Assembly (NCBI GenBank): GCA_937899865.1
Contig: CALBRH010000024.1
Location: 1 to 26,513, forward strand
From: an uncultured euryarchaeote
Lineage (GTDB): Archaea; Thermoplasmatota; Poseidoniia; Poseidoniales; Poseidoniaceae
Length of the DNA: 26,513 nt
Reading direction: 5' to 3'
Shown here in pieces: positions 2,095 to 10,477 of the stretch; the stretch's first letter is position 1, and every line of letters begins with the position of its first letter. Made by a program: the position numbers and the translations under genes. The notes beneath the pieces are model-generated. The model made no database searches. It was given only the letters and a program-made list of their open reading frames with translations, and was not told the DNA's origin.

Positions 2095-3063
2095 ATGGAG
2101 AATGAGTATGCTTCACATGTTGGTGGCCACATTACTCTATTTTTCACCGTTGAGAAAGATGGACGATTATTGCGTAATCAAGGCAGTAGGGGCGTTGGAA
2201 TAAATGTTCAACACGGCGTATCAGTAAAACTTTCAATCAAAGATTCCAATGGAGATATAAATGATAGCAGCATTACAGCTTTTGATTATCAAGGTAACGA
2301 AATGGAAAATTCTGACAAGTTTTATCGAGGCCTAATTGATGATTTAGTATATGCTAGATTGTTGGATAGTAGTCCTTCATTTGACATCTCAGTATCGCTT
2401 GAATTACCGACAAGTCAAGGCTTTGCGATGTCTGCTGCAGGTTTAGTCGGAGTCGCTTTGGCATTTCATAAATTTTCAAATCGAGGTAATATTGATCAAT
2501 ATTATCGTATTTGTCATAGGATTGAGAGAATAAATGGTTCTGGTTTAGGAGATGTACTGGGAATTCATGCTGGTGGTGTTGAGATTAGATTACAGCCAGG
2601 CGCACCAGGCGCCTCAGGAACTAGTCTTGGCTTCAAGTGTAAACAACCAGTAATTTTAGTTTGGCAACCCGAAGAATCTCGCCATACATCAAAATACATA
2701 GATGATGAAATTTGGCAAGCAAAAATCACTAAAGCTGGTCATAAAGCGTTGAACAAAATAAAAACCGGTCCATGGGATCATTCACGCTGGAAAGAGATTC
2801 TTGAGCAATCAAGTAACTTTTGTCAAGAATCTGAATTGATTTTTGAGACTGAACGAAAACAATTTCTTGATACTGTAATGTCGATAGTACGTTCCACTGA
2901 ACTGCAATCATATGTTAGAATTAGATTATGTATGTTGGGAGTTTCATGTGTAATTTTGCCAACAAAACTTGACCGAATGCTGTCTGATGAGGAATTAGAG
3001 TTACTAAATTCTAAGTTTTCAGAAAAGGGCTTAGAATCAATCATTACCGGTATAGATTGTTAG
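2095..3063 (+). CDS. Pantoate kinase (archaeal PoK, GHMP family)
   Basis: GHITLFF, GSRGVG, PTSQGFAMSAAG (GHMP ATP loop), GLGDVLG, GGVEIRLQPGAPG; clustered with PPS. Confidence 0.9.
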   Translation: MENEYASHVGGHITLFFTVEKDGRLLRNQGSRGVGINVQHGVSVKLSIKDSNGDINDSSITAFDYQGNEMENSDKFYRGLIDDLVYARLLDSSPSFDISVSLELPTSQGFAMSAAGLVGVALAFHKFSNRGNIDQYYRICHRIERINGSGLGDVLGIHAGGVEIRLQPGAPGASGTSLGFKCKQPVILVWQPEESRHTSKYIDDEIWQAKITKAGHKALNKIKTGPWDHSRWKEILEQSSNFCQESELIFETERKQFLDTVMSIVRSTELQSYVRIRLCMLGVSCVILPTKLDRMLSDEELELLNSKFSEKGLESIITGIDC

Positions 3064-3065
3064 AA

Positions 3066-4094
3066 TCAAGACATTTTTGATAGGTCAAGTACTCCAGCAT
3101 CGAGCATTAAACAACCTGGAATGAATAAATTTTCACTGAATCCATGACGGTAAACAACTGCACCACTGCCCCATTCCTCAATATATCTTGACATTTGTTT
3201 AGTCATTTTTTTCCTTTGAAATTGAACATCAGCACCATAGAAGTGTTTAGCATCAATCCAAGCAACAGGTTGGCCATTAATTTCTACATGGTCAAGAAAT
3301 AGGATGTCAGGAGTGTTTATCGGACGCCCATGTTCTAATTTTTGTTCTGAGACCATTTCATTTTGACGCCTTATTTTAACACCTCTAGATTCAAACCAAT
3401 CAGATAGTATTTCTTCAAACAAGTCTGCTCTTGAATGTGTTTCTGATTGATCTACATTTGAAACTCTATCTGCAGCCTCTGCTTTTTCAAATTCTTCTCT
3501 CTCGCGCTTTTTCATTTTACTTGGGTCTCGTAAACACTCTTTGATTCTTGATTTTGACCATCGCTTTTCCGCAAGAATCACGCGAAAAATATTCATTGGA
3601 GGGAAGTCGAATCTTGTCGAAAGGTCAACAACACTCACTCCTTCATTGTATAAGCGAAATAATGCTTTAGCTCTTGATTTTAGTCTGCCGTGCCCGTATA
3701 CGGTTTTTTGTTGAAGCAGGGCAGAGCGTAAAGATAGAGCCTGGTCAAGAGTCATTTTTTTGTCTTTGACAAATTTACCGATTTCTTCTACACGTTCATC
3801 TTCAAGCCAACCGAACTCTCCCTTTCTGATAACAAATTTAGCTAGAATCTCTTCATCTTTCAATGGTACAGGATTGTTTTGCCAATCAAACGAATGCTTC
3901 TTTGGCTCAAGGATAGAATCTGGAAAACCCATAGGCCTTTCTTGTCTTTCAAATCTATCATTTGCCCTTTTCTCTACTTGTTCGATGTATTCCTTACTTC
4001 TTTCAAGCAAGACAGATTTTTTGGTTGTACCATACCGTTTGGGTTTTTGTCGAGATTGTGACCGAGACTTTTTGCGTGGGGTTTTTGATGTCAC
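3066..4094 (-). CDS. TPD-motif PD-(D/E)xK nuclease-like protein, CDIN1/C15orf41-like
   Basis: GTG start. C-terminal TPDILFLDHVEINGQPVAWIDAKHFYG...QMSRYIEEWGSGAVVYRHGF matches the TPD-family pattern TPD..PV.V.G..I.WI(E/D)SK..FG..Q...Y...FG.G.VIYW.GF. An upstream HTH-like segment GVSVVDLSTRFDFPPMNIFRVIL is also present. Confidence 0.8.
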   Translation of the reverse strand: MTSKTPRKKSRSQSRQKPKRYGTTKKSVLLERSKEYIEQVEKRANDRFERQERPMGFPDSILEPKKHSFDWQNNPVPLKDEEILAKFVIRKGEFGWLEDERVEEIGKFVKDKKMTLDQALSLRSALLQQKTVYGHGRLKSRAKALFRLYNEGVSVVDLSTRFDFPPMNIFRVILAEKRWSKSRIKECLRDPSKMKKREREEFEKAEAADRVSNVDQSETHSRADLFEEILSDWFESRGVKIRRQNEMVSEQKLEHGRPINTPDILFLDHVEINGQPVAWIDAKHFYGADVQFQRKKMTKQMSRYIEEWGSGAVVYRHGFSENLFIPGCLMLDAGVLDLSKMS

Positions 4095-4207: not shown

Positions 4208-7030
4208 TTATGCAAATATGATGCTTGGGCTTAGTGGCAAGGAAGAATTTTCTCTGCCATCCTCGCCTTGATAGTCTTCAGCTCTAATTACTTCGATTTC
4301 ATTAAGATCAAGTTCTTTAGCAATAAATGATGCTCGCTCTAATAGTACCTCAGCCTCATCAATATTATCCAAAATAAGTGATTTTGATTTATCATCCCAC
4401 TTGAAAACTTGAGATAGCATCTTCTTATTCCAATATGACAAAATTTGCCCCATATTTTCATCATTTACAAAATCCATTTGTTTTAACTGTTGAATAAATT
4501 GTTTTACATTACCGCCATCATTGAGATAGTTTATCGCTGCTCTTGACAATTGGTTTTTCCATTCTGGGGAAACGATTAGAGTCAGTTTTTGTGCTTGACC
4601 GTCGAGGTGTTTTTCGGCAATTGACATTACTTTACGTGAATTTTCAAGTACTACTCGCATAATATATTCATGATTCAATACAGTTTCTTCGTCTTTAGAA
4701 ACTGGCTTGATATCGACCATTTCAGATGCAGATACCATTTCTTTGAGAGATAAACATCTACCCCACTCTTCAGCAAGATGAGGAGTTGATACTGAAATCA
4801 GATAAGTCCATGATTCGAGGACTAATCGTCCTATAGCGGCATTATTTCCGCCTCTTCTTACATACCAGTTGATATCCTTAATCAATTCATAATGAGAAAT
4901 TTCAACAGCTCTCCTCAAATCATAAATGTCCATAGCTTCACTAAATTCAGCGACCCTCTGCTTTAATCTAGCAACTAACCAATCATCTATCGGTGAAGCA
5001 TCACTACCCCAATTCAATATTGTTTCAGGCATTGTTCTCAGTTGCAACATCACACGATAGTTTGCTTCAAGAGCAGTATCAGACCAGTCCATTCCTGCAG
5101 TTGGGTTAGCAGCAAACAAAATGAATAATCGAACTGTGTCAGCACCATATTTTTCAATCATATCTTCAGGCGAAACAGTATTGCCAAGCGATTTACTCAT
5201 TTTTGCAGATCTCATGGCTAGAACATCGCCACATTGAGGACAAGGCATCCCAACATGGTCAACACTTAGGGTAATTGAGCAAGATTCACACCATGGGGCT
5301 GCTTTGTTTACCATTCCTTGACACAGTAGTTCATTGAACGGCTCATCAATAGAGTGGAGACCAATATCCCGCAACGCCTTCGTCCAAAATCTAGCATAAA
5401 TTAGATGCATTTGGGCGTGTTCAATTCCGCCACAGTAAAAATCAACATTCATCCAATGGTCTGCTAATTCTTTGGAGAAACATTCGTCATTATTTCTCGC
5501 ATCGGTATATCTCAAGAAATACCATGAAGAATCTACGAAAGTATCCATGGTATCGGTTTCTCTTCTTGCATCTTTGCCACATGTGGGACATTTTACCCGC
5601 TTGAATTCTAAAGAGGTCTCGAGAGGATTACCTTTACCAAATACAATATCTCTTGGTAATTCGACAGGTAAATCTCCTTCAGGAACAGGTACTGCGCCAC
5701 ATTCATCACAATGAATGATTGGAATTGGAGTACCCCAATATCTCTGTCTTGAGATTAGCCATGGTCTAATTTTCCAATTCAGTTTTCTTTTTCCTGAACC
5801 TTGACTTACCAGTGCATCGATAACTGCAGTAATGGCTTGTTCACCATATAATCCTTCAAAATCTGTATTCCCGGTATTAACCATCCAGCCATAATCGGTT
5901 TCTGCCTTTGTTAAATCAGCTGATGCATCACCATTTTCGGACATAACCAGTGTTCGACGAATCGGGATCGAGAATTTTTGTGCAAAGTCAAAATCTCTCT
6001 CATCATGAGCAGGTACGGCCATAACTGCTCCAGTTCCATATGATGCGATAACAAAATTCCCACTCCAAATTGGTATTTTTTCTCCAGTTAGCGGATGAAT
6101 AGCATTTTTTCCCAATGGTACTCCTTTTTTCTTATTCATATTTTTGATTCTATCAAATTCTGTCATTATTGAAACTTCATCATATAGTGCTTGCCAATCA
6201 GCCTCATTACCAGTACCAGAAACCAATGTTTTTGCCAGCGGGTGTTCGGGTGCTAGAGTTAAGAAAGTGACTCCAAATAATGTATCAGGCCTAGTTGTAA
6301 ATACAGTTATTGTCTCATCAGAATCCTCAATCTCAAAGGTTATTTCAGCACCTTCGGAACGACCCAACCAATCTCTCTGCATAGCAGCGACATTTTCAGG
6401 GAATTGAATTTGTTCAAGTCCATCAACTAATTCTTGAGCATACTTGGGGATATCTAAGAACCATTGACTCATTTCCTTTTGTTCTACAGGCCCGTTACAC
6501 CTCCAACAACGCCCAGCTTTGACTTGTTCATTTGCAAGAACAGTATTACAAGGGTCACACCAGTTTACTGGGGCAAATTCTTGGAATGCTAAACCGCTCT
6601 CGTAGAATTTGAGGAAAAACCATTGATTCCATTTGTAGTAATTTGGGTCGTGACTTTTCACCATTCTATCCCAGTCATATGAGAATCCCATTTGTTTGAT
6701 TTGCTTGGTAATCGAAGCCATATTTTTTTCAGTAATATCATGAGGGTGACCACCTTCTTTGATTGCGGCATTTTCTGCTGGCAACCCAAATGAATCAAAT
6801 CCCATTGGATATAATACATCAAAACCCATCATACGCTTGTAGCGAGCAACAGCATCTCCTATCGAATAATTTCGAACGTGGCCCATATGCATCTTGCCGG
6901 AGGGGTAAGGGTACATTTCAAGACAATAGAAAGAAGGTTTCTGATCATTTATTTTTGAAACAAATACTTTCTCTTCTTCCCATCTACGTTGCCAATAATT
7001 TTCATCGACATCTTGGATGCTATAACTCAG
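4208..7030 (-). CDS. leuS: Leucine--tRNA ligase (bacterial-type core, archaeal-type C-terminal domain); extended to a CTG start
   Basis: HMGH and KMSKS class I motifs; TTRPDTLFG and GTGAVMAVPAHDERD editing-domain motifs; WLISRQRYWGTPIP; DTMDTFVDSSWY. The frame continues 38 codons upstream of the track ATG (6916) as LSYSIQDVDENYWQRRWEEEKVF...FYCLE to CTG 7030-7028, preceded by GGAGGGGGT; in-frame TAG at 7051-7049. Confidence 0.95.
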   Translation of the reverse strand: MSYSIQDVDENYWQRRWEEEKVFVSKINDQKPSFYCLEMYPYPSGKMHMGHVRNYSIGDAVARYKRMMGFDVLYPMGFDSFGLPAENAAIKEGGHPHDITEKNMASITKQIKQMGFSYDWDRMVKSHDPNYYKWNQWFFLKFYESGLAFQEFAPVNWCDPCNTVLANEQVKAGRCWRCNGPVEQKEMSQWFLDIPKYAQELVDGLEQIQFPENVAAMQRDWLGRSEGAEITFEIEDSDETITVFTTRPDTLFGVTFLTLAPEHPLAKTLVSGTGNEADWQALYDEVSIMTEFDRIKNMNKKKGVPLGKNAIHPLTGEKIPIWSGNFVIASYGTGAVMAVPAHDERDFDFAQKFSIPIRRTLVMSENGDASADLTKAETDYGWMVNTGNTDFEGLYGEQAITAVIDALVSQGSGKRKLNWKIRPWLISRQRYWGTPIPIIHCDECGAVPVPEGDLPVELPRDIVFGKGNPLETSLEFKRVKCPTCGKDARRETDTMDTFVDSSWYFLRYTDARNNDECFSKELADHWMNVDFYCGGIEHAQMHLIYARFWTKALRDIGLHSIDEPFNELLCQGMVNKAAPWCESCSITLSVDHVGMPCPQCGDVLAMRSAKMSKSLGNTVSPEDMIEKYGADTVRLFILFAANPTAGMDWSDTALEANYRVMLQLRTMPETILNWGSDASPIDDWLVARLKQRVAEFSEAMDIYDLRRAVEISHYELIKDINWYVRRGGNNAAIGRLVLESWTYLISVSTPHLAEEWGRCLSLKEMVSASEMVDIKPVSKDEETVLNHEYIMRVVLENSRKVMSIAEKHLDGQAQKLTLIVSPEWKNQLSRAAINYLNDGGNVKQFIQQLKQMDFVNDENMGQILSYWNKKMLSQVFKWDDKSKSLILDNIDEAEVLLERASFIAKELDLNEIEVIRAEDYQGEDGRENSSLPLSPSIIFA

Positions 7031-7119: not shown

Positions 7120-8004
7120 ATGGCACGAAGAATCGAAGTTCGAGCCCCCTCAAGAATTGATTTAGCAGGAGGTTGGACTGACGTTCCAACTTATTGTAAA
7201 CAAAAAACCGGTGAAGTAGTAAACATAGCAATCAATCAATATGTAAGATGTGAGATGCTAATTGATGATGATAGGAAAATATCTTTGACATACAAAACAG
7301 ACATGCCAACAGGTTCTGGTTTAGGTACCAGTGGTGCTATGAATGTAGGATTTATTTCAACTATAACAAGTTCATCACAGCAACCTATTGAAACCGCGGA
7401 AATCGCTTATCAGTTTGAAGCATTACTAGGAAATAAAGGTGGGCGGCAAGATCAATGGGCTAGTGCTTTGGGAGGAATAAATCATCTTTCTTTTGATGAT
7501 GAAGCGGTTTCAGTCGAAAAGATTACTCCATCAATTGAATTTTGTAATTGGCTTGAGAATCATCTTTTGCTGTTTAATAGCCACATAACCCATGTCTCGG
7601 GAGATTTACATAAAAGCGTCTGGCAACGTTTTGAAGATGGTGATGAAGAAATAACCGACGGCCTAGATTTGATTAGAGAAGCAGGATTATTGATGGCCAA
7701 AGGAATTACGACAGAATCTGTTGAAGATGTTGTAAATGCAATGAATATGAATTCAGCAGGAGTGGATATTCTCGGACTCGAATTACATGAGCCATTTAGA
7801 GATAAGTTACAGGAATTATCGGATAATGGAGTAGTACGTGCTTGGAAAGCAATGGGCGCTGGTGGTGGAGGAGTGGTTGGAATTATTCTTGACTCATCAC
7901 AGAACAACTTCGAAGTAATCAATCAATTAGAATCAAAAGGTTGGACCAATATTCCATGGAAAATAGATACCGATGGAGTGATAAGAAAAGAGATCAATCT
8001 CTAG
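7120..8004 (+). CDS. GHMP-family sugar(-phosphate) kinase, HddA/fucokinase-like
   Basis: APSRIDLAGGWTD, PTGSGLGTSG, GGRQDQ, KAMGAGGGG. The start is set at ATG 7120 (MARRIEVRAP) because the longer track ORF from 6763 overlaps leuS head-on. Confidence 0.85.
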   Translation: MARRIEVRAPSRIDLAGGWTDVPTYCKQKTGEVVNIAINQYVRCEMLIDDDRKISLTYKTDMPTGSGLGTSGAMNVGFISTITSSSQQPIETAEIAYQFEALLGNKGGRQDQWASALGGINHLSFDDEAVSVEKITPSIEFCNWLENHLLLFNSHITHVSGDLHKSVWQRFEDGDEEITDGLDLIREAGLLMAKGITTESVEDVVNAMNMNSAGVDILGLELHEPFRDKLQELSDNGVVRAWKAMGAGGGGVVGIILDSSQNNFEVINQLESKGWTNIPWKIDTDGVIRKEINL

Positions 8005-10477
8005 CTTTGGTAAATTCCATATCAGTTTCAAGTAAAAATAGAGCTTCTTTGGTTAATTTGTAACGATTTTTAATTCCCATTTTTCGCTTCTCTACCAAGC
8101 CAAACTTTTGCAGAGTTCTCAAATGATGTGAGATGAGTTGCTGGCTCTTCTCTAACTTTTTGGCTAGTTCAGATTGGGTAGGGAATTCACCTAGTTGGTG
8201 CTCATCATCGAGTAGAGTCAGAATTTTTCCTTGCAAACTATTTGGATCCGGAGATAGCGGCGGAATAGGTAATTCGTCAGGATTCATTCCAGGGTATAGT
8301 GAATTGTTTAGAGGGTAATATCTGACGAATCTTCCATCATTTATACGCCATATCAATTCTTGATTTTCTAATAATCTAAGATGGTGTGTAATTTGGCCAT
8401 TACTCATATTTAATGCGGCCATTAGTGCTCTAAAATGACAACCAGGATTAGCAGTTAAATAACCAATCAACCGTCCTCTTTGGAAACGGCCATCAGAGGT
8501 TTCATGAGTCTTACCAACTAAAGCAAACATCCAAAGTCCTAGAGAAGTTACTGGAATTCTAAGGCTCTCTGTATTAGATATAAGTAATACTAGGGTTAGG
8601 ATTATTGATGCAGTTGCTGTACCAGTTACAGTAATAGCGACTACATCTATTTCATCAGAGGTCTCAATTTCCAATTCAGTTACAATGGAACTTTCGGGCT
8701 CAGATTCAAAATAAATTTCATCAATCACAACTAATTGTATTCCAAAAATACCACAGTTTCCAACACCGGTTTCAGCTTTTGAAACAAGATAACTTCCAGT
8801 CCAATCCTCTTTTGGCGACCACTGAGATGTTAGGAGATTTGAATCTATGATGTGAGCGTTATTTGGTGAATTAATAATCCAGCATTCATTTTGACCATAT
8901 TCGATATTTTTCCAAATTCCATCAATTTGAAAGTTATCATTTGTTGAATGGACGTCATTATTATTGACTTTGATAGAGAAATATTCATTCATTGTTAAAC
9001 CATTAAATGTCGAATATTGTATATTGATCACATCATTTTCTATAGTTTCACTTAACTCGAATTGATTGGAAAACTCGATATTTCCTCCATTTAAGGTGAA
9101 GAAGTTGCCTGGAGTGAAGCCACAAAATTCATTTACAAAACTGTTGAGTGATAAGATTTCAATCTTCAAACCCGCTAAGCAGTTAGTATCAATCCTCATA
9201 ACTTCTTGATTAGTCGATAATTCAAAATCTGAAAATACTGTATAATCAATTAAACTAGATTGAAAATCAACTTCAATATTTTTTTCTAAGCATGCAACTT
9301 CAGTATTTTTGTAAAGATGTTGATAATCAAAGGAAAAGAACTTGTTTCCGATTTCAATAATTATATTGTAAGTCCCCATTTCAATAAAGCATTGCTGGTC
9401 ATTTTTTAGACTCCATTGAAAAATCTCCTTAACATTATTTTCTGATTGTAATTGTTCTTCATTACATAGACTAATCTGATTTGATAGATATTCTGCTCCA
9501 AAATCATGGAATATTGTTACTGATGCGTCACAAACTTCAATTTGATTTTCAGTATTTGTTTGATCAAATGTTGCAAAGAAAGATACTGAGTCTTCATTTG
9601 CATAATGGTCAATTTTGATAACTGGAGATACTTGTTGCATAGATTGATCTTCATCTTGAGACTCATCATTTTGACTTTGTTCATGTTCTGGAATCGCTAC
9701 CGATACTATTTCTTCCGAACCATACAATTGGAATGTAATTGGTAGCGAAAAATCATATTTATTTTCTAAAATTATTACATGTCCAGCGTAGATGTTCTCA
9801 TTAGGGTGAAATAATTCTGTATTTCCATAACATGATTCAATCATTTGAACATAATCTGCGTTGTTAATGACAATTAGACATTTTTCATTGTCCAAATCAA
9901 GTATAGATTGACTTGGGTTATTCAACAAGATCTGTGCAGCATAGGCTTCGTTTTGAGATATTGTGGAGATTTTGTTTAGTTTTACTTCCAGTTTTAAATC
10001 TTGATTGATAGTTGACATTTTTATAAATTCTAAATTGATTGTATCATTAAGTTCTAGAATACTATGATGTAATTTGATGTAGTATTTACCGGACTCAACA
10101 TACTCATTATCATGATTTTTAAAATCCCATATTTGTCTAGGCTGCTCTAAAGCTTCATTGCTATAAATAATTGAATCTCTGATTTGATTTCGACATTCTC
10201 CAAAGTTTGAATATACTATTTGATTTTCTTCATTTTCTACTGTAATATAAACGCCACAAGAAGGATTTTCTTGATAAACTTCGGCGTTTCCATAGTTTAT
10301 TAGTAGTGAATCAATTTCAATCGATTGCCCTTCAATAAAGACTGACAGACTTTCATCAGTTGTGATTTCAAGTGATAATGAGGATTCACTATTTGATTCA
10401 GCAGTAGTGTGCGGCAAACTAGACAATAACATCAGCCCGGCGAGCAGGGCTATTGCAAACCTTTGAGCCTCCGCCAT
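7994..10477 (-). CDS. Membrane-anchored transcriptional regulator: signal peptide, large extracellular beta-rich region, TM helix, two winged HTH domains (COG3398-like)
   Basis: N-terminal MAEAQRFAIALLAGLMLLSSLPHTTA signal peptide; hydrophobic VVAITVTGTATASIILTLVLLI near aa 610-635; RGRLIGYLTANPGCHFRALMAALNMSNGQITHHLRLLE...DGRFVRYYP and PTQSELAKKLEKSQQLISHHLRTLQKFGLVE wHTH units. Confidence 0.85.
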   Translation of the reverse strand: MAEAQRFAIALLAGLMLLSSLPHTTAESNSESSLSLEITTDESLSVFIEGQSIEIDSLLINYGNAEVYQENPSCGVYITVENEENQIVYSNFGECRNQIRDSIIYSNEALEQPRQIWDFKNHDNEYVESGKYYIKLHHSILELNDTINLEFIKMSTINQDLKLEVKLNKISTISQNEAYAAQILLNNPSQSILDLDNEKCLIVINNADYVQMIESCYGNTELFHPNENIYAGHVIILENKYDFSLPITFQLYGSEEIVSVAIPEHEQSQNDESQDEDQSMQQVSPVIKIDHYANEDSVSFFATFDQTNTENQIEVCDASVTIFHDFGAEYLSNQISLCNEEQLQSENNVKEIFQWSLKNDQQCFIEMGTYNIIIEIGNKFFSFDYQHLYKNTEVACLEKNIEVDFQSSLIDYTVFSDFELSTNQEVMRIDTNCLAGLKIEILSLNSFVNEFCGFTPGNFFTLNGGNIEFSNQFELSETIENDVINIQYSTFNGLTMNEYFSIKVNNNDVHSTNDNFQIDGIWKNIEYGQNECWIINSPNNAHIIDSNLLTSQWSPKEDWTGSYLVSKAETGVGNCGIFGIQLVVIDEIYFESEPESSIVTELEIETSDEIDVVAITVTGTATASIILTLVLLISNTESLRIPVTSLGLWMFALVGKTHETSDGRFQRGRLIGYLTANPGCHFRALMAALNMSNGQITHHLRLLENQELIWRINDGRFVRYYPLNNSLYPGMNPDELPIPPLSPDPNSLQGKILTLLDDEHQLGEFPTQSELAKKLEKSQQLISHHLRTLQKFGLVEKRKMGIKNRYKLTKEALFLLETDMEFTKARD

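Follow-up and report, generated by a model that had tools for sequence, protein, structure and literature searches.

Human CDIN1 and its archaeal relatives

Human CDIN1 (C15orf41) has been described as an RNA nuclease, the activity of which is broadened and modulated by its partner Codanin-1 (PMC13463051, 2026). According to that work, CDIN1 binds double-stranded DNA without digesting it, a D196A/E214A mutant is inactive, and a positively charged coiled coil of Codanin-1 feeds substrate to the enzyme, which is modelled as an eight-helix N-terminal domain, a single long connecting helix and a five-stranded alpha/beta/alpha sandwich. Orthologues of C15orf41 in Euryarchaeota were reported by Swickley et al. 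2020 (PMC7092493), and the human protein was found to be closer to archaeal (E 1e-34) than to choanoflagellate (E 1e-12) proteins. The present analysis concerns one such homologue, the product of a gene at positions 3066-4094 (minus strand) of contig CALBRH010000024.1 (assembly GCA_937899865.1) from an uncultured euryarchaeote of the family Poseidoniaceae, order Poseidoniales; the whole stretch of 26,513 nucleotides (nt) is referred to as the window. Archaeal TPD/CDIN1 homologues have been annotated and published before, and in its basic form the present finding is a known one: an 86%-identical protein carries the NCBI name 'TPD domain-containing protein [Candidatus Poseidoniaceae archaeon]'.

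What is added here, of modest value, is a subfamily assignment and a probable gene replacement. Taken together, the data make it likely that the gene encodes a stand-alone, catalytically intact TPD/CDIN1 nuclease which is a single-copy housekeeping gene of the Poseidoniales, belongs to the first of two subfamilies designated A and B, may be directed at RNA, and goes back to one ancient replacement.

Family membership and parts of the gene

The open reading frame (ORF list and translation) starts with GTG and comprises 342 amino acids (aa). The Pfam TPD profile (PF14811) matches aa 196-323 with 74.3 bits (E 1.1e-20; 76.2 bits in the scan of its own genome), above the curated gathering score of 27, and at the sequence level the combination of this match with the motif set is far above chance. 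The catalytic set is complete, with E227 in the segment ADLFEEIL, D263 in the TPD motif, and D281 and K283 in WIDAKH (counterparts of human E166, D196, E214 and K216), and the C-terminal element Q300..Y304...WGSGAVVYRHGF follows. In an alignment of 23 sequences, consisting of the window protein, ten Poseidoniales and twelve other Thermoplasmatota homologues, E227, T261, P262, D263, K283, Q300 and Y304 do not vary and only D or E occurs at position 281, while in a wider alignment the E, D and K as well as Q-x3-Y are invariant in 72 of 72 sequences. Upstream of the nuclease domain lie the helix-turn-helix (HTH)-like segment GVSVVDLSTRFDFPPMNIFRVIL and the basic N-terminus PRKKSRSQSRQKPKR. NCBIfam holds no model matching the protein. 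The closest public record to the locus is a metagenome-assembled genome (MAG) of Candidatus Poseidoniaceae MGIIa-L1 with 97% identity, and the best 80 genomic loci matched all belong to Poseidoniales.

The preliminary description had proposed a CDIN1-like TPD nuclease with an apparently complete PD-(D/E)xK set. The profile search bears out the family identity, the catalytic residues could all be located, and the motifs quoted in it, from the basic N-terminus to the C-terminal tail, are real, TPD and WIDAKH lying exactly where it had placed them. The sequence and the predicted model thus support a full-length TPD/CDIN1-family member with putative HTH-like modules and an intact PD-(D/E)xK set. 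The following features were assigned, all on the minus strand unless stated otherwise:

3066..4094, minus strand: complete ORF of 342 aa, TPD/CDIN1-family nuclease, type A (translation, PF14811 at 74.3 bits, AlphaFold2 model)
4029..4094, minus strand: Lys/Arg/Ser-rich, disordered N-terminal tail, aa 1-22 (model confidence, pLDDT, below 50 at aa 1-19)
3810..4028, minus strand: type-A N-terminal module, aa 23-95 (confidently modelled helix 26-49, strand 66-69, helix 78-88)
3465..3809, minus strand: eight-helix domain, aa 96-210, with two HTH-like units (helices within aa 99-209 of the model)
3573-3641, minus strand: GVSVVDLSTRFDFPPMNIFRVIL, aa 152-174, part of the second HTH-like unit (structural matches at aa 132-183)
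3069..3449, minus strand: PD-(D/E)xK nuclease domain, aa 216-342, including the long E227 helix (Pfam TPD at aa 196-323, VIA-align)
3414..3416, minus strand: putative catalytic Glu E227, human E166 (invariant column; role from PMC13463051)
3330..3347, minus strand: six-residue 'EQxxxxG' insert marking subfamily A, about aa 250-255 (E-to-D spacing)
3306..3314, minus strand: TPD motif (ACT CCT GAC, nt 3314-3306), aa 261-263, with the putative catalytic Asp D263, human D196 (sequence; invariant)
3246..3254, minus strand: D281-A-K283, the (D/E)xK element, human E214-x-K216 (sequence; K invariant), within WIDAKH (TGG ATT GAT GCT AAA CAC, aa 279-284, nt 3260-3243)
3183..3197, minus strand: Q300-x3-Y304 (invariant columns); human Q232 and Y236 are modelled RNA contacts (PMC13463051)
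4208..6916, minus strand: leuS (Pfam LeuS domains), 113 nt upstream of the TPD gene
2095..3063, plus strand: convergent GHMP-kinase gene, pantoate-kinase-like (Pfam GHMP_kinases_N), its stop 2 nt from the TPD stop

The other Poseidoniales proteins likewise have basic tails, similar in composition. The type-A N-terminal module consists of a long helix, an 'RF..P.GFP..W..P' block and a G(E/D)(F/Y)G motif, while the eight-helix domain aligns with the N-terminal domain of short archaeal TPD forms.

Predicted fold

An AlphaFold2 model built on the 23-sequence alignment (pLDDT 88, pTM 0.82) predicts disorder at aa 1-19, a helix at 26-49, a strand at 66-69, a helix at 78-88 and eight helices within aa 99-209, followed in the C-terminal half by a long helix (216-236) bearing E227 and a mixed-sheet alpha/beta domain. 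From the eight helices onwards, this predicted order of helices and strands fits the description of human CDIN1 in PMC13463051. In comparisons with the PDB by VIA-align, the PD-(D/E)xK domains of AF1548, BsaWI, R.BspD6I, FokI, Vsr and Can2/Card1 were matched at Z 5-6.5, aa 74-134 resembled homeodomain-like folds, and aa 132-183 the HTH domains of Tn3 resolvase, DeoR and SorC (Z about 5). A Foldseek search of BFVD gave as top match a viral protein without a name (E 1e-25; template modelling (TM) scores 0.72/0.80), together with a 'TPD domain-containing protein' of Powai lake megavirus (3e-12) and a mimivirus 'CDAN1-interacting nuclease 1' (2e-9), and the full-length matches to viral models named TPD or CDIN1 have TM scores of 0.56-0.80. 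In the AlphaFold2 model, the VIA-align matches and the viral models alike, a two-domain architecture is found, i.e., a helical, HTH-like N-terminal domain and a C-terminal alpha/beta/alpha nuclease domain.

Activity and substrate

The four residues of the catalytic site, like the Q-x3-Y element, are conserved without exception in 72 sequences, and the window protein is therefore very probably active as a metal-dependent nuclease. In the manner of other PD-(D/E)xK enzymes, E227, D263 and D281 would hold Mg2+ and K283 would activate water. By analogy with human CDIN1, the substrate might be RNA, and the enzyme might trim, in a Mg-dependent manner, the 3' end of RNA in RNA:DNA hybrids or duplexes. 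RNA is favoured because the sole assayed relative, human CDIN1, trims RNA in RNA:DNA hybrids and binds DNA uncut; this choice is tentative, at a little under an even chance, and is ranked above structure-specific DNA.

A structure-specific DNA endonuclease acting in repair or recombination, resembling Holliday-junction resolvases as originally predicted for C15orf41, is the alternative that survives best, although we consider it unlikely. Human CDIN1 binds double-stranded DNA but digests RNA and not DNA (PMC13463051), and extensive assays on DNA substrates including Holliday junctions were negative (PMC7261414). Against this stands the fact that most PD-(D/E)xK enzymes are DNA cutters, that restriction enzymes, Vsr, NucS and Bax1 come up as structural neighbours, and that the two HTH-like units resemble DNA-binding domains. 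In addition, a gene for a Cas4-like DNA nuclease of the PD-(D/E)xK type (Pfam Cas_Cas4/PDDEXK_1) adjoins the short TPD gene on the same strand in three of 16 type-B loci (L026, L027, L036). However, the homologue of this gene in the genome studied here (C33:61813-62145, 28% identity over 370 aa) lies on a different contig, and the pairing is therefore not applicable here.

The favoured RNA nuclease would work without Codanin-1. In its own genome the best match to Codanin-1 (PF15296, Codanin-1_C) reaches 15.5 bits, below the cut-off of 27 bits, and contains three internal stop codons. It may be speculated that the Lys/Arg-rich tail, together with the extra N-terminal module, replaces the positively charged substrate-feeding surface of Codanin-1.

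Two subfamilies of TPD proteins

A profile search of 1.8 billion representatives recovered 2,724 clusters belonging to the family. The best 150 of this search and the 23 aligned sequences were used as input for FastTree, and the resulting tree of the 165 rows with sufficient core length falls into two halves, A and B, with support 100. The same split is found by IQ-TREE under LG+C20 for 72 labelled sequences (branch 0.89; Shimodaira-Hasegawa (SH)-like approximate likelihood-ratio test 99). Forcing all archaea into one clan costs 109 log-likelihood units (p 1.2e-5 in the approximately unbiased (AU) test) and 131 under LG+F+G4 (p-AU 3e-6), and archaeal monophyly of the TPD family is rejected.

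Judged by record names, half B includes Marine Group III (MGIII) and ANME-2, and the red algae Gracilaria, Gracilariopsis and Agarophyton are placed at its base, adjoining the branch between A and B. Together with the Poseidoniales, half A comprises a Saprolegnia 'CDAN1-interacting nuclease 1', a protein from a 341-kb 'seawater metagenome' contig and a Kipferlia record. In IMG/VR, 12 of the 15 loci carrying the family are giant-virus MAG records, and all ten giant-virus copies placed in the tree (G + C content of the loci 0.15-0.23) fall into half A. The long forms in half A bear PPR or Stc1 domains, which point to a eukaryotic origin; where the type-A representatives are unnamed, their likely source was judged by names, domains and composition. 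Searching shorter proteins for homologues of the Saprolegnia TPD region yielded oomycete fragments only.

The Kipferlia record (GIQ89291.1, K. bialata, on a 2.3-kb contig) is 45-51% identical to Poseidoniales TPD proteins, and both trees place it as their sister. Either it contaminates the Kipferlia assembly, or it is the closest eukaryotic relative, in which case it would bear on the direction of transfer.

The two halves also differ in sequence characters, for which spacings were counted on the alignment and human values were taken from published numbering. The six-residue insert before TPD ('EQxxxxG') is present in 48 of 50 half-A sequences, with a longer version in three giant-virus copies. 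The spacing from the catalytic E to D is accordingly 36 in Poseidoniales, giant viruses, oomycetes and long forms, as compared to 28-31 (mostly 29-30) in type-B archaea and 30 both in red algae and in human numbering. Most half-A groups, with the exception of oomycetes, have one additional residue between K and Q. The acid of the acid-x-K element is D in most half-A sequences and in red algae, in contrast to E in 15 of 16 type-B archaea. An N-terminal W..P..G(E/D)(F/Y)G block is common to the cellular half-A groups, including oomycetes and long forms, and is lacking in type B; of this block the aligned cores of most giant-virus copies retain just G-x-(F/Y)-G.

With spacings of 36/20/17 and D-x-K, the window protein does not have the geometry of type-B archaea (28-31/20/16 with E-x-K). 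Human CDIN1 (E166, D196, E214, K216, Q232 and Y236; PMC13463051) does, its 30/20/16 pattern with E-x-K being that of half-B archaea, and by active-site geometry, i.e., indirectly, it can be placed in type B.

Origin of the Poseidoniales gene

Poseidoniales TPD proteins have 320-400 aa and score 64-82 bits against Pfam TPD, while among the matches listed the proteins of other Thermoplasmatota, MGIII included, have 245-300 aa and score 123-168 bits. The pattern is clean: Poseidoniales carry type A only, and the other Thermoplasmatota among the matches listed, including the sister group MGIII, carry type B only. This distribution suggests as the simplest history a single ancient replacement of type B by type A at the base of the Poseidoniales. 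On balance, we therefore favour a scenario with two ancient TPD/CDIN1 subfamilies in which all Poseidoniales swapped the ancestral type B for the type A found in giant viruses and marine protists. In fast searches, forcing the Poseidoniales outside all other type A costs 47 log-likelihood units (p-AU 0.03, p-SH 0.07), and the direction of transfer leans, weakly, towards eukaryotes or giant viruses as donors and archaea as recipients.

Alternatively, the gene might descend vertically from an archaeal type-B gene by fast evolution, and its grouping with viruses and protists might be a long-branch or compositional artefact. The tree searches were quick or fast, the branch separating A and B is long (0.89), many giant-virus rows deviate in composition, and a core gene of host-like composition would be in keeping with vertical descent. 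However, archaeal monophyly is rejected under two models, the Poseidoniales branches are not individually long, and besides viruses the insert and the N-terminal block also occur in oomycete proteins of normal G + C content; moreover, the additional residue between K and Q is common to giant viruses and long forms (though not oomycetes). Vertical descent is thus improbable.

Returning to the replacement scenario, the preliminary description had left a choice between a stand-alone prokaryotic version revealing the ancestral activity and an arrival from eukaryotes or giant viruses. The phylogeny with eukaryotic, giant-virus and archaeal homologues groups the Poseidoniales copy with giant viruses and protists, and trees, insert and N-terminal block link it to the branch of eukaryotes and giant viruses, in favour of the second possibility. 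The first is less favoured: because of this link, and because the short type-B archaeal proteins have the human geometry, the Poseidoniales copy is, as judged from its sequence, not the most suitable stand-in for the human enzyme's ancestor. In the searchable literature, we found neither a description of the A/B split or of the replacement nor a paper linking CDIN1 with giant viruses or Poseidoniales.

Conservation, distribution and genomic neighbourhood

In view of the early negative assays of the human protein (PMC7261414), the HTH-like units and the basic tail, the gene product might also be a catalytically silent nucleic-acid-binding or regulatory protein keeping the nuclease fold. Invariance of the catalytic residues throughout the family, type A included, would be unexpected for a dead enzyme, however, and the human enzyme is active, while its D196A/E214A mutant is not (PMC13463051), so that this possibility is highly improbable.

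Of the Poseidoniales genomes sampled, 150 of 151 have a PF14811 match, nearly always in single copy, and 3 of 3 families and 22 of 22 genera are represented; in the phylum Thermoplasmatota it is present in 172 of 301 genomes, and amongst the named control genomes Methanosarcina acetivorans alone matches. The assembly studied here (2.0 Mb, 91% complete) has exactly one copy, the composition of which shows no anomaly compared to the host. The TPD gene is thus a single-copy core gene across Poseidoniales. Two Poseidoniaceae genomes of the same genus have a second TPD match each (G044:C4:120240-120626 and G058:C8:601-1008), one of which falls within an open frame of 940 aa; lineage-specific duplication or fusion may account for them.

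Neighbours of the gene in the window are leuS, the GHMP kinase, nadC and phosphopantothenate synthetase, housekeeping genes that include some for coenzyme A (CoA) and NAD biosynthesis. The preliminary description had noted the adjacency to leuS and the absence of a defence-island context. Both are confirmed, leuS lying 113 nt upstream on the same strand and the PADLOC search being blank, and the synteny extends beyond the window genome: the convergent pair of TPD gene and GHMP kinase is retained in 79 of 80 Poseidoniaceae loci, and leuS is found upstream in 63 of 80 of these loci and in MGIIb loci, too. As the gap to leuS varies from about 70 nt to 5.6 kb, co-transcription of the two genes is not obligatory. 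A conserved operon partner was likewise rejected, since short-form neighbourhoods differ between families, except for the Cas4-like neighbour in three of 16 loci. A scan for sigma-70 promoters and terminators was set aside, such bacterial signals not being meaningful in an archaeon. Metatranscriptome contigs of 85-242 nt from two marine studies cover parts of the TPD gene, none spanning the leuS junction, and are a weak hint of its expression.

A defence or restriction-type nuclease, or a gene of a mobile element, as might be suggested by restriction-enzyme neighbours of the PD-(D/E)xK fold and by relatives in giant viruses, is very unlikely and the least probable of the alternatives, given the single copy in 150 of 151 genomes at a conserved housekeeping locus, the absence of matches to PADLOC profiles (at E <= 0.01) and to PHROGs, and the fact that no adjoining methyltransferase or integrase was seen in the window annotation.

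Neighbouring genes and a probably mislabelled record

The first canonical start of leuS (4208-6916, minus strand) gives a protein starting with MYPYPSG. Upstream and in frame (6917-7030, minus strand), about 35 conserved N-terminal residues of LeuS are encoded (..DENYWQRRWEEEKVFVSKINDQKPSFYCLE), and no ATG, GTG or TTG follows the preceding TAG in this extension, while ATA, CTG and ATC codons are present. Translation may begin at a non-canonical codon, or else the ORF, simply called, is too short.

A 51.9-kb record labelled 'Verrucomicrobiales bacterium ARS100' (NZEQ01000060.1) carries LeuS (67% identical), TPD (63%) and GHMP kinase. Because this is the gene order of Poseidoniales, an archaeal contig has almost certainly been mis-binned here into a bacterial MAG.

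Finally, an 827-aa protein (7994-10477, minus strand) combines a long N-terminal region without Pfam domains with a C-terminal HTH pair (HVO_0163 N-terminal HTH and ArsR/MarR), an unusual, large architecture resembling that of a transcription factor.

Strength of the evidence and implications

Several points weigh against the interpretation of the gene as an active, RNA-directed type-A nuclease acquired by replacement. Human CDIN1 is the only family member assayed, and the activity of archaeal and type-A proteins is extrapolated from it; human C15ORF41 was reported to be without nuclease activity on many DNA and RNA substrates (PMC7261414), and the activity of the family may therefore be narrow or depend on a partner. 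Matches in the PDB are weak (Z < 7, and Foldseek E > 0.09 for restriction enzymes), and no CDIN1 chain was found there by sequence or profile search. Metazoan CDIN1 is absent from the trees and was placed via Pfam scores and the residue numbers published for it, the trees resolve the direction of transfer only weakly, and the evidence for expression consists of short contigs.

For work on the physiological substrate of CDIN1, a prokaryotic enzyme free of partners would be a convenient model. TPD enzymes in archaea are widespread, core and, by sequence, intact, and are thus worth assaying. For the human enzyme, however, the Poseidoniales version would be the wrong proxy, whereas type-B archaeal proteins have the human active-site geometry; the genetically tractable Methanosarcina acetivorans also matches the family, at family level. 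The A/B split may further explain the odd observation in PMC7092493 that human CDIN1 is closer to archaeal than to choanoflagellate proteins. The findings point to gene exchange amongst marine archaea, protists and giant viruses. If true, the swap of type B for type A would mean that a core nuclease was replaced across domains and that the newcomer was fixed in an archaeal group which is among the most abundant in the ocean.

Comparison with known relatives

With human CDIN1 the window protein shares PF14811, the succession of a helical HTH-like domain, a long connecting helix and a PD-(D/E)xK sandwich, the catalytic quartet (E, TPD Asp and acid-x-K) and the Q-x3-Y element. It differs in about 95 extra N-terminal residues (basic tail and type-A module), in the six-residue insert (E-to-D spacing 36 vs 30), in D-x-K instead of E-x-K and hence in belonging to the other deep subfamily, and in that the partner Codanin-1 was not found in the window genome.

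Giant-virus TPD/CDIN1 proteins (Powai lake megavirus A0A167RJG3, Acanthamoeba polyphaga mimivirus A0A2L2DJP4 and the giant-virus MAG copies of IMG/VR) have the insert, D-x-K and the K-to-Q spacing of 17 in common with it and match its predicted structure over the full length (TM up to 0.80) at 24-36% identity. In the viruses, however, the copies are smaller (about 270-300 aa) and very AT-rich, and the basic tail is missing.

The oomycete 'CDAN1-interacting nuclease 1' (Saprolegnia parasitica XP_012202103.1, 700 aa) and the long forms have the type-A core, the insert and a block of the W..P..G.(F/Y)G type, but carry 350-480 further N-terminal residues, in some cases with PPR or Stc1 domains; oomycetes also possess Codanin-1 (PMC7092493).

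The short type-B archaeal TPD proteins of Marine Group III, ANME-2 and many Thermoplasmatota, with which the Methanosarcina acetivorans match is listed as a family-level match, belong to the same family, have the same catalytic residues and likewise stand alone without Codanin-1. In contrast to the window protein, to which they are 21-24% identical, they comprise 245-300 aa without the N-terminal module or the insert, have E-S-K, score 123-168 vs 64-82 bits against Pfam, and are in some cases paired with the gene of a Cas4-like nuclease.

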